Positions 1 through 6,082 of a stretch of 12,991 bases of DNA are shown here, one piece after another (the stretch's first letter is position 1; the number at the start of each line of letters is the position of its first letter). Below the pieces are notes generated by a model, which saw only the letters and a list, made by a program, of their open reading frames with translations, did no database searches and had not been told where the DNA came from. This stretch comes from Candidatus Binatia bacterium (lineage in GTDB: Bacteria > Desulfobacterota > Binatia > Bin18): assembly GCA_963664395.2 (NCBI GenBank), contig CAXXIS010000004.1, positions 1 through 12,991 on the forward strand. Reading direction: 5' to 3'. The position numbers and the translations under genes are program-made.

Positions 1-595
1 CGCCCAGTCAGCCGGTCGGCAATCGTTCCCAGGAAGCACCGGCGGCGCCGCACGGGGTGTATCCCTGCAAGGTGACGACCGCTGGTGCGCGATTGCCGTC
101 TTCACCCAAGCAGAATGGCAGCGTCTGTGCCGCGTCTTGGGGCAGCCGGCCTGGACGCGCGAAGCGCGCTTTGCCAGCCTTGCAGACCGTCTCCACCATC
201 AAGACGCTTTGGACGGGTATATTGAAGCCTGGACCCGGCAGCATACGGCTGAAGAAGTCATGACCCGTCTGCAAGAAGCGGCCATCGCCGCCGGCGTGGT
301 TGCCAACGGGGAAGACTTGGACCGCGACCCACAACTGCGGGCGCGGGGGTATTGGGCACGGCTGCCGGCCCAGGAAAACGGGAAAACGGAGGAGGTCATA
401 CTTGACGGGCCGCCGTTCAAGCTCTCTCAGACGCCAGGCTACGTGGCCACCCCAGGCCCGCTGCTGGGTGAGCATACGGATAGCGTGCTGCGCCGCTTAC
501 TCAACTACTCTGACCAGCAGATCGCTCAACTCAAGGCAGAGAAGGTCATCGCCTCGCACGCCGAGATTCACGCCGAGCGGACGGTACGGGACTAG
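1..595 (+). CDS. CoA-transferase family III (CaiB/BaiF), C-terminal part; 5'-truncated by window edge, apparent 1-nt frameshift at ~69-71
   Basis: Frame 3 (3-71) reads PSQPVGNRSQEAPAAPHGVYPCK. Frame 2 (71-595) continues GDDRWCAIAVFTQAEWQRLCRVLGQPAW...DPQLRARGYW...PGPLLGEHTDSVL. The joined sequence is collinear with the paralog at 7387-8601 (GNRDPHMAPHGVFRSKGDDRWVSLSV). Confidence 0.9.
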   Translation, partial: AQSAGRQSFPGSTGGAARGVSLQGDDRWCAIAVFTQAEWQRLCRVLGQPAWTREARFASLADRLHHQDALDGYIEAWTRQHTAEEVMTRLQEAAIAAGVVANGEDLDRDPQLRARGYWARLPAQENGKTEEVILDGPPFKLSQTPGYVATPGPLLGEHTDSVLRRLLNYSDQQIAQLKAEKVIASHAEIHAERTVRD

Positions 596-602
596 GGTGC
601 AG

Positions 603-932
603 ATGTCCAAATACTTCAAGGAAATCTTCAAACGCGATAATGGACGTTGCGTCTACTGCTGTCGCGACCTCATGAGCGATTTTGAAGCGTTCATGATCGC
701 CGAGGAAGACCACCTGATTCCCGCGGCGGCCGGCGGACCCGACGAACCACAGAACATTGTCATAGCGTGCGCCGTATGTAATCGCCTCAAGGGAAAGTTT
801 AAACCCGAGATGTCCCTGAATTTGAATGATCTCGAATCTCGGCGAAAATACATTGAGGTAGTTCGCGCTTACATTATGAAACGCCGTGCAGTCAAAATGG
901 CAGACTTCGCTTCCTGGACTCACCCCGAATGA
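603..932 (+). CDS. Stand-alone HNH endonuclease (zinc-binding, McrA-like motif), 109 aa
   Basis: IFKRDNGRCVYC...EEDHLIPAAAGGPDEPQNIVIACAVCNRLKG matches the CxxC, DH, GG..N..CxxCN..K HNH signature. ATG at 603 is preferred because the longer 300..932 ORF overlaps the CoA-transferase. Confidence 0.88.
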   Translation: MSKYFKEIFKRDNGRCVYCCRDLMSDFEAFMIAEEDHLIPAAAGGPDEPQNIVIACAVCNRLKGKFKPEMSLNLNDLESRRKYIEVVRAYIMKRRAVKMADFASWTHPE

Positions 933-995
933 CCACTAACGCGGCTCGCCTTATTCGAGCTATTCCTCGGAAGCTAGGTGCGGTATCTTGCCGGT

Positions 996-1490
996 ATGGC
1001 CAAACCGCGTGTGTATGTTGAGACCACGATCCCCAGCTTCTATCATGAGGAACGCACCGCCCCCGACATCGTGGCGCGTCGGGAGTGGACCCGACGGTGG
1101 TGGGACAATGCGCCTGATCGCCACGAGATGGTCACCAGTCCAGCCGTGCTAGACGAACTAGCCGGAGGTATACCGGAGCGCAGCACGAAACGATTGGCTC
1201 TGGTTCGTGATCTGCCGCTTCTGCCCGTCGAGCCGGCCATCGCCGAGATTGTCCAGGCGTATATCCGGCACAAACTGATGCCGGCTGATCCTGGTGGGGA
1301 CGCGCTGCACCTAGCGCTCGCCTCCTATCACAAGTGTGACTTTCTGGTAACCTGGAATTGTCGGCACCTTGCAAACGCAAACAAGTTTGGACACATCCGT
1401 CGTGTGAATGCCATGCTCGGGCTTTTCGTGCCGGCTTTGGTGACACCCCTGGAACTCCTGGGAGGGATCGATGAAACAGAACCTAAGTGA
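996..1490 (+). CDS. PIN-domain (VapC-like) type II toxin/RNase
   Basis: RVYVETTIPSFY, S..VLDEL, DALHLALAS and DFLVTWNCRHLAN are PIN-family motifs. ATG at 996; alternative GTG at 978. Confidence 0.88.
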   Translation: MAKPRVYVETTIPSFYHEERTAPDIVARREWTRRWWDNAPDRHEMVTSPAVLDELAGGIPERSTKRLALVRDLPLLPVEPAIAEIVQAYIRHKLMPADPGGDALHLALASYHKCDFLVTWNCRHLANANKFGHIRRVNAMLGLFVPALVTPLELLGGIDETEPK

Positions 1491-4113: not shown

Positions 4114-4155
4114 CGGCTTTTTGATAGGCCGGCGTTTCCGAGCGCGCGAAGATGT

Positions 4156-4227
4156 CTGGTACGACAACGTTTGAGGGCTGCCGAGCAGCATTATCGGGAG
4201 CAGTACGCTCCGGGGAAAAAGCCATGA
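4156..4227 (+). pseudogene. 3' remnant of a RelE/HigB (Gp49-like) toxin gene
   Basis: Translates LVRQRLRAAEQHYREQYAPGKKP*, resembling the C-terminal helix of Gp49-like toxins. Its TGA overlaps the next ATG (ATGA, 4224-4227). No start codon or N-terminal toxin sequence lies between the tatC stop and 4156. Confidence 0.65.
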
Positions 4228-4565
4228 GTACAGATATCAAAGTGACGCCTTCAAGCGGGAATGTGTTCGCTGACCTCAATCTGCCAAATCCAGAGGAGCG
4301 CTTAGTGAAAGCGACCATCGCCTTGAGCATTGGAGAGCTGATTGAGAAACGGGGCCTCACCCAAGAGGAGGCAGGGGCTATTCTCGGGTTGCCACAACCG
4401 AGCGTCTCGAACCTGATTCGAGGCAAACTAGAGAAGTTCACAATCGACCGGCTGCTTCGCTACATGCGGAAGCTCGACTACGATGTCACTATCAGTTTTA
4501 AGCCCAAGCCCAAGTCCCGCAATGAGGCCACAATACATGTCAAGGGAGCACCCCTGCCAGCCTAG
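4224..4565 (+). CDS. XRE-family HTH protein (HigA-like antitoxin, HTH_37 type)
   Basis: SSGNVFADLNLPNPEE...GLTQEEAGAILGLPQPSVSNLIRGKLEKFTIDRL is the family signature. Confidence 0.92.
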   Translation: MSTDIKVTPSSGNVFADLNLPNPEERLVKATIALSIGELIEKRGLTQEEAGAILGLPQPSVSNLIRGKLEKFTIDRLLRYMRKLDYDVTISFKPKPKSRNEATIHVKGAPLPA

Positions 4566-4612: not shown

Positions 4613-4966
4613 TTACACAGCATCGACCACCACACGTACATCAGCATGCTTGGACTGACGCGGTTTGTCCCTGATAACAATTTCGATGGACTTATCCAGC
4701 TTATTGAGAAAGCGAAACAAGCGTTCAGCCGAGAACCCGTCCAAATGGCCTTTCATGAGTGCAGAGACATTCGGCTGTTTGATATCGAGCAGCTTAGCTG
4801 CTTTGACCTGAGTGAGCTTCCGTGCCCGGATTATCTGGCAGATTTGAAAGGCAAGCTCCGCCTTGGCCAGATGTTCCTCTGGGTTGGGCAGTCCAATGTC
4901 CACAAAGATATTGCCGCTACTCTCTTCATATTCGATGGGGTTCGTCGCGCTCTTTGTTCGTGTCAT
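4613..4966 (-). CDS. XRE-family HTH protein (HigA-like antitoxin, HTH_37 type), second copy
   Basis: SSGNIFVDIGLPNPEEHLAKAEL...LTQVKAAKLLDIKQPNVSALMKGHLDGFSAERL; AAAGGA RBS upstream of the ATG at 4966. Confidence 0.92.
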   Translation of the reverse strand: MTRTKSATNPIEYEESSGNIFVDIGLPNPEEHLAKAELAFQICQIIRARKLTQVKAAKLLDIKQPNVSALMKGHLDGFSAERLFRFLNKLDKSIEIVIRDKPRQSKHADVRVVVDAV

Positions 4967-4979
4967 TTTCCGCGTCCTT

Positions 4980-5468
4980 TCACACCAAGCGCTGCTCGCA
5001 GTTTTGACGCTGACTACAGTTTCGGCACTTGGCTGGCGTAGAGGGTGGGGAGAGGGGTTTGTCGAGCTGCTGACGATGTGCTCGAATGCGGTCCGCAATA
5101 CCAATCACCCGCGAACGCAGCCGGCGCGTGTTTTTCACCTTGACCCGCTCACCGTCTCTCAAAATGATGAAGCCATACGGGGGCCGGACGACGTACTCTT
5201 CTTCGACTAACACCAGATACACCCCGAGTTGGGCTTGATAACTCTCGTTCATCTGTCGTCCGGACTTCTTTTCTTCCGGAATAAAATATCGACCACGTTG
5301 GACAATCCGATCCGGTTGCCCGCGGAGCATATAGCGCTCGGAAGACAGCCGCACGTCATCGTGGCTGATGGTCCTGCCGGAGCCAAAGCCGGCCCGGCGA
5401 CGGCCTATGAGGGCAACCACAAAGAGCAGGACGGACAGGCTGAGCAGCAGCGTCAGGATGACCATCAC
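4980..5468 (-). CDS. Cas4-like PD-(D/E)xK nuclease, catalytic/C-terminal part with N-terminal TM anchor
   Basis: N-terminal hydrophobic helix followed by GRRR; LRGQPD (motif II), PEEKKS (motif III, ExK), QLGVY (QxxxY), RPPYG and C-x2-C-x5-C (KCRNCSQRQNC). Lacks the N-terminal Cys and motif I His segment. Start is GTG 5468 or ATG 5465. Confidence 0.85.
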   Translation of the reverse strand: MMVILTLLLSLSVLLFVVALIGRRRAGFGSGRTISHDDVRLSSERYMLRGQPDRIVQRGRYFIPEEKKSGRQMNESYQAQLGVYLVLVEEEYVVRPPYGFIILRDGERVKVKNTRRLRSRVIGIADRIRAHRQQLDKPLSPPSTPAKCRNCSQRQNCEQRLV

Positions 5469-5710
5469 GACAGGTAGACACGGAGCAGGATACAGGCCAG
5501 GGCGATAGCCGCCACAATGAGAGCGGCTCGCATGAGCCGGGCAGTCCGGCGTTCAACCCGTTGCCACGCGGCGTGCGTTTCCGTTCCGCGGCGGAGCGCC
5601 CGCACATTGCCCGGCGGGATTTTGAGTCCATGCGTCAGCCGCCACGCTTCCTCGCAATAGACGTAGGTTCCAATTTCACTTGCTGTGACCCAATCGGAGT
5701 GTTTGGCCAT
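5465..5710 (-). CDS. Small membrane protein carrying the Cas4-like N-terminal segment
   Basis: VTASEIGTYVYCEEAWRL...ALRRGTETH matches the Cas4 N-terminus (S....Y.YC...W; G...H), followed by the C-terminal TM helix AALIVAAIALACILL. Its stop overlaps the next start (GTGATG). Confidence 0.8.
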   Translation of the reverse strand: MAKHSDWVTASEIGTYVYCEEAWRLTHGLKIPPGNVRALRRGTETHAAWQRVERRTARLMRAALIVAAIALACILLRVYLS

Positions 5711-5753
5711 AGTCGATTGTGTGTGGTGGAAGTGAGTTCGTGGGCCCTCGGAC

Positions 5754-6029
5754 CTACGCTGAGCCCTTATTCTCCGGATGCATCTTCTCCATCAACCAGT
5801 CGTCATGTTCTGTTGGACGAGGGACTTGATGCCAGTCCATGTGCTGGCGGAGTGATTCGAGCGCGGCCCAGGTATGCTCAATAAAGTCCGGTACGATCAG
5901 GAGCACGATAATGGCCTTTTTATTATCAATCGTGCGCACAATGCCGAACTCTTCGTAGGACTCGATGACACATTTGATGAGCGCAATATCGGCCCGCTCA
6001 ACCCGCAAGTAAATGTCGCTCAGCTCCAT
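5754..6029 (-). CDS. DUF4911-like small protein
   Basis: YLRVERADIALIKCVIESYEEFGIVRTID...LLIVPDF resembles DUF4911 from memory. ATG at 6029. Confidence 0.75.
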   Translation of the reverse strand: MELSDIYLRVERADIALIKCVIESYEEFGIVRTIDNKKAIIVLLIVPDFIEHTWAALESLRQHMDWHQVPRPTEHDDWLMEKMHPENKGSA

Positions 6030-6082
6030 GTCCGCACCACAAGTACTGTCTGGAGTACTGCGTGCACGGTCTGGAGTCAAGC

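Follow-up and report, generated by a model that had tools for sequence, protein, structure and literature searches.

The stretch of DNA analysed here (hereafter, the window) is 12,991 nucleotides (nt) long and makes up the entire contig C5 (CAXXIS010000004.1) of GCA_963664395.2, the assembly of a Candidatus Binatia bacterium. On its minus strand lie two overlapping open reading frames (ORFs), ORF1 of 81 amino acids (aa) and ORF2 of 162 aa, which resemble the N-terminal and C-terminal parts of the nuclease Cas4 and to which we refer as the N-half and the C-half. A preliminary description, made from the letters of the window, had taken them for the parts of one split Cas4-like nuclease anchored by two transmembrane (TM) helices; when the codons were checked, the 81-aa N-half, the C-half overlapping it on the minus strand and every codon named in that description proved correct (Table 1). 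The motifs of ORF2 follow one another in the order G-x-P-D53, E66-K-K68, Q80-x3-Y84 and C148-x2-C151-x5-C157, Q80 and Y84 being confirmed along with the catalytic and Cys codons. The two genes overlap by 4 nt, and the stop and start codons merged there have the form of a translational-coupling junction.

Table 1. Positions of the gene pair, its sequence features and neighbouring genes in the window.
Feature	Position	Strand	Remarks
N-half gene ORF1 (81 aa)	5465..5710	-	Cas4 N-terminal segment with Cys19, Gly42 and His46, then C-terminal TM helix
Cys19 codon (ORF1)	5654-5656	-	
His46 codon (ORF1)	5573-5575	-	
TM helix of N-half (about residues 60-78)	5477..5533	-	from hydropathy; predicted N-in, C-out
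Stop/start overlap GTGATG	5463..5468	-	ORF1 TGA over ORF2 GTG or ATG
ORF1 stop codon TGA	5465-5467	-	
ORF2 start codon GTG	5466-5468	-	
ORF2 start codon ATG	5463-5465	-	
C-half gene ORF2 (162 aa)	4980..5468	-	N-terminal TM helix, PD-(D/E)XK core, Cys triad
TM helix of C-half (residues 3-21)	5406..5462	-	from hydropathy; predicted N-out, C-in
D53 codon (ORF2)	5310-5312	-	PD-(D/E)XK motif
E66 codon (ORF2)	5271-5273	-	PD-(D/E)XK motif
K68 codon (ORF2)	5265-5267	-	PD-(D/E)XK motif
C-terminal Cys triad C148, C151, C157	4998..5027	-	three of the four presumed 4Fe-4S ligands
Cys148 codon (ORF2)	5025-5027	-	
Cys151 codon (ORF2)	5016-5018	-	
Cys157 codon (ORF2)	4998-5000	-	
HTH_37 (XRE-type) gene	4613..4966	-	Pfam HTH_37 E 4.6e-24; start 13 nt past ORF2 stop
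Paralogous HTH_37 gene	4152-4565	+	convergent with the preceding gene
DUF4911 gene	5754-6080	-	43 nt upstream of N-half
HNH endonuclease ORF	300-932	+	
PIN ORF	978-1490	+	

Profile comparisons place the two ORFs on complementary parts of the Cas4 family. ORF2 residues 48-157 align with positions 52-158 of the 160 in Cas_Cas4 (PF01930; E 1.7e-9, 38.4 bits against a cut-off of 22.7), and ORF2 matches TIGR00372 (NCBIfam cas4) at positions 55-179 of 180 with 60.6 bits, under the 65-bit equivalog cut-off. ORF1 residues 9-62 correspond to positions 3-56 of the 247 in PDDEXK_1 (Pfam; E 0.005, 17.2 bits against a cut-off of 22). Among PDB profiles, the C-half profile matches the Cas4 structures 8d3l (E 3e-10, residues 103-199) and 7mi4 (E 8e-10, residues 65-196) as well as 4r5q and 4ic1, and the N-half profile aligns with residues 10-48 of 8d3l (E 0.37), with the Cys and the G..H motif in register. 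Coverage of the Cas4/PDDEXK profiles is complementary and free of overlap across Pfam, NCBIfam and PDB, as the preliminary description had predicted, and the combined soluble length of the halves is about that of one Cas4.

The residues expected of a Cas4 are conserved on both chains. G50, P52, D53, K68, C148, C151 and C157 are invariant in 44 diverse split-type C-halves (alignment A3), in which E66, Q80 and Y84 are nearly invariant, and among 14 N-halves of four lineages (alignment A5) C19 is invariant and H46 nearly so. The pair therefore has the RecB-type PD-(D/E)XK motifs of Cas4 (D, E-x-K and QxxxY) together with its hallmark of four Cys, one N-terminal and three C-terminal, but with the Cys spread over two polypeptides. 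In an AlphaFold2 model of ORF2 (mean predicted local distance difference test score, pLDDT, 92.9), a helix at residues 2-25 is followed by an alpha/beta core; Cas4 chains (8d3l, 7mi5, 8d3q and 7mi4) occupy ranks 1-5 of the Foldseek matches to this model (E 6.5e-7 to 4.3e-6, TMq 0.55-0.58), and Dna2, ACE1 (ranks 7 and 14), MGME1, Pcal_0546, SSO0001, RecE and AddAB are found further down. The ligands of the catalytic metal in SSO0001 are His62, Asp99, Asp113 and Lys115 (PMC13621843); judging from alignment and model, the metal-ligand His of Cas4 is likely to correspond to His46 in the N-half.

The division into two genes is conserved, and since both are maintained as proteins in several phyla, the feature goes beyond chance. 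All 12 loci examined in close relatives, which are themselves Candidatus Binatia, have both ORFs with an unchanged frame relation, and two genes are kept in distant loci as well: in Binatia at about 75% identity, in metagenome contigs at 57-60%, in Tautonia sociabilis (G041) and a Chloroflexia metagenome-assembled genome (MAG; G043) with three copies each, in other Planctomycetota and in a 45%-GC contig of a fermentation metagenome. When 55 locus records, several of them the same place twice, were searched with hidden Markov models (HMMs) of the two halves, 51 proved to contain a good C-half. The adjacency that the preliminary description had suggested looking for is found in nearly all of these: the N-half lies directly upstream on the same strand in 48 of the 51, or in 49 once L062 (E 5e-5 in a smaller search) is added, and the remaining two are L052, with 62 nt of contig upstream, and L057, an incomplete C-half remnant. 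Junctions of the ATGA, TGATG or GTGA type join the genes in the window and in L024, L025, L026, L028, L030, L032, L033 and L035; in L034 the genes are 1-2 nt apart and in L054 about 100 nt.

Two complete plasmids from cultured strains, PALBO2 of Paludisphaera borealis and pSINAC03 of Singulisphaera acidiphila, each carry two RefSeq genes with a 4-nt overlap, the one labelled 'hypothetical protein' and the other 'PD-(D/E)XK nuclease family protein'. The junction is free of insertions and deletions in contigs of independent runs from DNA and RNA libraries; RNA-library contigs from two studies, which were used purely as confirmation of sequence and not as a sign of transcription, cover parts of both genes, and one of them (X15 record 12, 5247-5947) bridges the junction. 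ORF1 contains no X_XXY_YYZ slippery heptamer. Identities of the N-half and the C-half to the window fall together (Spearman 0.71 over 17 non-independent loci). From these sequence comparisons, the pair is almost certainly a real two-gene module. The window is 97.4% identical end to end with a part of C1, the main contig of the same assembly (G000:C1:1453397-1466411; L039 1397-14411), where the same pair is present, and the MAG has a contamination of 5.37%; the window contig is probably a strain-variant (haplotig-like) contig of this MAG, so that the 'two copies' of the pair in the genome are probably one locus from two strains.

The wider family contains both split and fused proteins. In an exhaustive HMMER search, ORF2 matches 730 cluster representatives if E<=1e-3 is required and 160 if the limit is set at E<=1e-10. 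Among the 150 listed ORF2 matches that were classified, 53 are of the split type, complete proteins of some 150-185 aa in which an N-terminal hydrophobic helix precedes the core and the Cys triad, 74 are incomplete by the motif test, 13 are complete with no helix called at the threshold used, nine are longer and have helices, and one is of another kind. The N-half profile found 149 proteins of 44-163 aa, nearly all of 76-101 aa; every name shown for these homologues is 'hypothetical protein'. A language-model look-up, taken as a lead only, points the same way, the clusters being of two sizes, about 160-180 aa with the names Cas4 or PD-(D/E)XK and about 80 aa without a name.

Five single-chain relatives (P0035, P0037, P0042, P0124 and P0154) contain the N-half motif, two hydrophobic segments and the core in one polypeptide. 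P0078 and P0141 have the same fused layout but no C-terminal Cys, P0169 has four hydrophobic segments, and in P0162 one is called at the threshold. The N-half profile aligns with fused N-termini at hhalign probabilities of 88.6% (P0169) and 92.5% (P0124), in agreement with hmmsearch, and PDDEXK_1 matches each of P0124 and P0162 once, over positions 5-247 of 247 and across the insert. Three other long matches turn out not to be fusions, P0137 arising from a frameshifted read-through, P0172 having a motif-less upstream extension and P0135 a longer linker. A resemblance of the N-terminus of P0035 to a HicB-like domain was discarded, as it had no Pfam match at E<=0.01. One further protein, P0075 (220 aa; a single sequence with no context), is permuted, in that a TM helix and a C-half core lacking the Cys triad precede an N-half with its TM helix, Ser replacing Cys; it may be a circular permutation that does without the cluster, or have arisen by a deletion between tandem copies.

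A quick maximum-likelihood tree was built from 70 core regions; it has few columns and many unresolved forks, and its root is set by four outgroups. In it, TM-bearing proteins split off from these outgroups, four soluble single-chain Cas4-like proteins of related genomes, with a Shimodaira-Hasegawa-like approximate likelihood ratio (SH-aLRT) of 99, and long and split forms are intermingled: branches with good support force at least five changes between them, a count that takes in nine long rows, three of them the non-fusions above. Fusion and fission have accordingly happened more than once, and the pair in the window is the split version of a fused, TM-hairpin Cas4-like clade. The preliminary description had named a continuous ORF in homologues as something that would count against a split enzyme. 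In the window's own lineage the genes are consistently separate; in a minority of relatives the two halves are indeed continuous, as TM-hairpin fusions. Because fused and split versions are interleaved, a classical indication of joint action, the halves can be expected to act as one enzyme, and that they form one is in our judgement very probable.

Hydropathy and charge suggest how the two chains sit in the membrane. Kyte-Doolittle means over 19 residues reach 2.55 in ORF1 (62-80) and 3.08 in ORF2 (3-21), and five Lys and Arg residues precede the ORF1 helix and four follow the ORF2 helix, compared with none on the opposite sides. By the positive-inside rule, charged flanks on the nuclease sides of the helices indicate that both soluble parts face the cytoplasm, and we consider this predicted location at the cytoplasmic face of the membrane quite likely. 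Tat export, suggested by the adjoining tatBC genes, was considered and rejected, since the arginines before the N-half helix are, as judged by eye, unconserved in A5.

A model of the complex was computed in three runs from both chains with their own alignments (A3 and A5) and one 4Fe-4S cluster. The interaction score ipSAE (interaction prediction score from aligned errors) was 0.81, 0.80 and 0.80 versus 0.17 for the best control, a mark to which 58 of 80 solved complexes, but only 2 of 110 mismatched pairs, came up. The pLDDT of the partners is no lower than 81, and any two runs have at least 97% of the contacts in common. The modelled interface comprises the TM helices (ORF2 1-26 with ORF1 55-77), the Cys regions (ORF1 5-29 with ORF2 147-157) and a third contact between ORF1 45-46 and ORF2 47-54 and 67-69, bringing together the two TM helices, the four Cys and His46, Asp53 and Lys68. 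Modelling of the complex had been proposed in the preliminary description; with the cluster included, the model passes the controls and places the Cys19 region next to Cys148-157, a result that likeness to solved Cas4 structures may explain. The model supports binding of the two halves to each other.

Taken together, the explanation that we prefer overall, and hold with moderate confidence, is that the pair encodes two membrane-anchored halves of one Cas4-family 4Fe-4S nuclease, which would most likely act as a barrier to incoming DNA. In an ancestor, a TM hairpin would have been inserted between the N-terminal Cys/His segment of Cas4 and its catalytic core, and in the lineage of the window the gene would then have been cut within the hairpin loop. 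Both halves would be made from one transcript, their translation coupled by the stop/start overlap; each would insert one TM helix, leaving the soluble parts in the cytoplasm, and the two would pair through the helices and through the fold itself. The N-half would give Cys19, the fourth cluster ligand, and His46, the putative metal ligand, and the C-half Asp53, Glu66, Lys68 and the three other Cys. With the ligands divided in this way, the cluster site and the active site would exist only in the heterodimer. Assembly through the TM helices into a tethered nuclease had been put forward in the preliminary description, and all the computational tests that it suggested turned out in favour of this. 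At the membrane's inner face the nuclease would degrade the ends of DNA and so form a barrier to phage, plasmid and transforming DNA, and tethering might keep it off the chromosome, by analogy with the unrelated nuclease SNIPE.

The module is patchily distributed and often decayed. Across 25 genomes of the genus of the window, the C-half is intact in 13, has internal stops in three, is fragmentary in three and was not found in six, and 16 genomes of other genera of the class gave three weak matches only, to soluble single-chain Cas4-like proteins. In a sample of Planctomycetota, 2 of 301 genomes match at E<=1e-30 (at most 11 candidates scored per genome), and all three plasmid matches belong to this phylum. 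Decayed copies include L022 (G007), with a TAG just ahead of the last Cys; L024/L047, with an in-frame TGA in the core of L024; L027, with a stop in the N-half; L029, L048 and L058-L060, which have frameshifts, those of L058-L060 being identical in three separate contigs; and L057 and L065. A 100-aa remnant adjoins an IS701 transposase on plasmid pPL62-2. We regard the module as a self-contained, horizontally mobile accessory unit.

Gene context was read in about a dozen loci, picked by availability. The neighbours of the pair in the window are a DUF4911 gene, two HTH_37 regulators, TatB/TatC, CoA-transferases, an HNH protein and a PIN protein. The HTH_37 gene downstream of the C-half is probably co-transcribed with the pair in the window and does not belong to the conserved module; L025 has no such gene 3' of the pair, and it is also lacking from variant contigs whose sequence departs from that of the window exactly at 4980 (loose ends in X15 and X17). 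This gene and its convergent paralogue are antitoxin-like XRE genes with no recognisable toxin partner. The DUF4911 gene is syntenic in Binatia relatives only, and RNA-library contigs extend from it into the N-half; both DUF4911 and HTH_37 are local to Binatia. The HNH and PIN ORFs, between a CoA-transferase fragment and a histone-deacetylase-family gene, are small nuclease-type genes amid a metabolic stretch. A conserved third gene was sought by all-against-all comparison of ORFs from seven loci of different lineages and rejected, as only the two halves are common to the lineages.

Elsewhere the neighbours are of several kinds. In two Tautonia loci the pair lies downstream of, and on the same strand as, genes for a T4 coupling protein, DUF6573 and a TrwC relaxase, and the third Tautonia locus has two MmeI/Eco57I-type enzymes. 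Metagenome contig L056 carries a Gp49-like gene and an 844-aa ORF whose N-terminus is near-identical to that of the TrwC relaxase. On PALBO2 an MmeI-family enzyme is encoded 90 nt downstream of the pair, and the plasmid also carries a MobF relaxase, umuD with a Y-family polymerase and an S8 peptidase/ATPase pair; pSINAC03 has an N-6 methylase, VapC/MazE-type genes and a MobF relaxase. L054 contains AbiEi/AbiEii, a SMODS protein and a DNA methylase, L049 a 1843-aa ResIII/SNF2 helicase and L057 an HTH-IrrE protein; the Chloroflexia loci, L038 and L062 have housekeeping or secreted-protein genes. In elements of the Isosphaeraceae type (L036 3714-4142, minus strand, and plasmids L063/L064) the pair travels with MOBF relaxase, T4 coupling protein and DUF6573, a set that may be a conserved plasmid backbone or a cargo block.

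A patchy, mobile and often decaying module beside restriction, abortive-infection (Abi) and conjugation genes fits an accessory function against foreign DNA, and a role in defence or exclusion is accordingly one that we put forward tentatively, as plausible rather than probable. More ambitious, and on balance doubtful, is the proposal that the family forms a widespread unnamed class of two-subunit membrane Cas4-family Fe-S nucleases, which would act as a stand-alone innate barrier, destroy DNA on its way through the inner membrane, tell self from non-self by location, as SNIPE does, and use assembly as a safety catch, with cluster and active site arising only once the two inserted halves come together.

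Several points weigh against the tethered-barrier explanation. The match of ORF1 falls below the Pfam cut-off, that of the N-half profile to the PDB is weak (E 0.37), and His46 is assigned as a metal ligand solely from the alignment and from model contacts. Halves of a fold that has often been solved as one chain may pass the complex test by mirroring Cas4 likeness, and with self-made alignments and a ligand in the run the calibration is only rough. As to function, no match was found in 50,697 phage records or, with the A1 patterns, in IMG/VR, which is no proof of absence; PADLOC gives no system model besides Cas4 profiles; the window contains housekeeping neighbours (TatBC, CoA-transferases), and two Chloroflexia loci adjoin GlmS-like and FtsZ-like ORFs and a glycosyltransferase, in a set of contexts that is not an unbiased enrichment test. 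Finally, according to a published analysis (PMC5704561), solo cas4 genes evolve as ordinary genes do.

The strongest competitor, which we nevertheless think unlikely, is a plasmid or conjugation function: at the membrane, the nuclease would be a partner of relaxase and coupling protein, for instance in the processing of transferred DNA, in entry exclusion against related plasmids or in competition among mobile elements. The coupling protein and TrwC relaxase of the two Tautonia loci, the relaxase-like ORF of L056, MobF relaxases within about 4 kb of the pair on PALBO2 and pSINAC03 and the restriction of plasmid matches to Planctomycetota all speak for it; the linkage is, however, limited to Isosphaeraceae-like Planctomycetota, and the examined stretches of the Binatia, Chloroflexia, L049, L054, L057 and L062 loci contain no conjugation genes. 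As plasmids often carry defence cargo, linkage to plasmids does not tell the conjugation reading from the defence reading.

Slightly less likely still is a toxic effector of the abortive-infection or toxin-antitoxin type, gated by assembly or release, that would be kept harmless at the membrane, or as separate halves, until infection or membrane damage made it attack cellular DNA. A composite active site would permit such gating, some neighbours would suit it (AbiEi/AbiEii with SMODS, a Gp49/HigB-like toxin gene and, in the window, the antitoxin-like HTH_37 regulators), and SNIPE lacking its TM segment is toxic (PMC13190303). Translational coupling and the fused relatives argue instead that the halves are constitutively together, and no immunity or sensor gene is conserved as a third member across lineages.

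That the pair supplies Cas4 in trans for CRISPR adaptation, or is a membrane-bound housekeeping DNA-repair nuclease, we regard as improbable. The array scan and ORF scans bear out the preliminary description, which had seen no array, cas1 or cas2: neither a tandem nor a CRISPR-like array is present in the window, its ORFs include no cas1 or cas2, and no cas gene adjoins the pair in any locus examined. Cas1 homologues do occur in the genome, at 3.37 and 3.50 Mb of C1, PF01930 matches nothing in it apart from the two copies of the pair, the nearest solved folds are Cas4 chains of Cas4-Cas1-Cas2 complexes, and solo Cas4 has been proposed to act in defence or repair (PMC5704561). Nonetheless, the Cas1 loci are about 1.9-2.0 Mb from the chromosomal copy of the pair, so the term 'solo' Cas4 used in the preliminary description suits the position of the pair but not the genome as a whole, and Tautonia has, besides the pair, separate matches inside open frames of about 560 aa, which are probably Cas4-Cas1 fusions. 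Frequent loss and decay within one genus are a poor fit to a housekeeping role. Last, the idea that the split is not real, but a frameshift error, a decaying pseudogene or programmed -1 frameshifting, is largely refuted and highly improbable: ORF2 does lie in the -1 frame relative to ORF1, in a frame open for 28 codons upstream of its start, some relatives (L022, L024, L027, L029, L048 and L058-L060) are truly decayed, and the window probably represents a strain variant within a MAG that has 5.4% contamination, but an artefact is ruled out by the split in 12/12 close relatives, in all distant lineages and in the two annotated genes of cultured-strain plasmids and by the indel-free independent contigs, programmed frameshifting is countered by the missing heptamer and by proper start codons overlapping or adjoining the stop at every junction, and a frameshift product would lose the first TM helix, since the ORF2 frame upstream of the start is non-hydrophobic in the translations seen.

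A large solo-Cas4 subgroup thus has an architecture that public annotation misses, the C-half being labelled Cas4 or PD-(D/E)XK and the N-half 'hypothetical protein'. What solo Cas4 genes do is called an open question in PMC5704561; if the innate-barrier proposal is right, many of them would for the first time have a concrete function. Naturally fused and split versions would also offer a clean system for studying the assembly of Fe-S nucleases, and the pair bears on membrane tethering as a general way to aim nucleases at incoming DNA and on how mobile elements use such enzymes.

The preliminary description knew of no characterised system with this architecture, and none was found in searchable full texts: full-text literature searches, with subscription papers and supplements outside their reach, returned no description of a split or membrane-anchored Cas4. 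The words 'transmembrane', 'split' and 'truncated' are absent from the main text of PMC5704561, whose supplements, outside reach, might list such a subgroup, and the Cas4 passages of PMC13621843, PMC10653904 and PMC4158269 concern other proteins.

Among known systems, Cas4 itself (8d3l of type I-C, the type I-G Cas4/Cas1 fusion 7mi4/7mi5, SSO0001 4ic1 and Pcal_0546 4r5q) has the same core, motifs and Cys arrangement. Unlike Cas4, which is one soluble polypeptide, the pair consists of two genes, with a TM helix ending the first half and another starting the second, and unlike CRISPR-associated Cas4 it is not beside cas1, cas2 or an array. In the latter respect it resembles solo-Cas4 and mobile-genetic-element (MGE) Cas4, Cas4-family nucleases away from CRISPR loci and in some cases on mobile elements; to our knowledge, the known solo forms are single soluble chains. 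Defence or anti-defence roles are suspected for solo and MGE-Cas4 (Hudaiberdiev et al. 2017; PMC5704561). ACE1 (9iac, 9iab), an Argonaute-associated Cas4-family protein, is among the fold matches of ORF2.

The nuclease domains of AddB/AdnAB, Dna2, Exo5 and MGME1 share the fold with weaker matches, and the N-half of L062 weakly matches Exo5. In several of these enzymes the cluster ligands are likewise one N-terminal and three C-terminal Cys, but they belong to large soluble helicase-nucleases or are eukaryotic or organellar enzymes, and we know of none that is split or membrane-anchored. The closest parallel in mechanism, and in mechanism only, is SNIPE (PD-lambda-1), described in PMC13190303 as a membrane-bound nuclease that cuts phage DNA during injection and that has an N-out single-pass anchor and a cytoplasmic nuclease, tethering being proposed to spare the chromosome. 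The topology predicted for the C-half is the same, but SNIPE is one chain of DUF4041 and a GIY-YIG nuclease, with neither an Fe-S cluster nor a second subunit, and its domains are absent from both ORFs, for which Pfam and PADLOC scans give only PD-(D/E)XK, Cas4 and DruK profiles. By predicted fold and by motifs, then, the pair is best described as a Cas4 that departs from the known ones in two features, the single soluble chain and the association with CRISPR.

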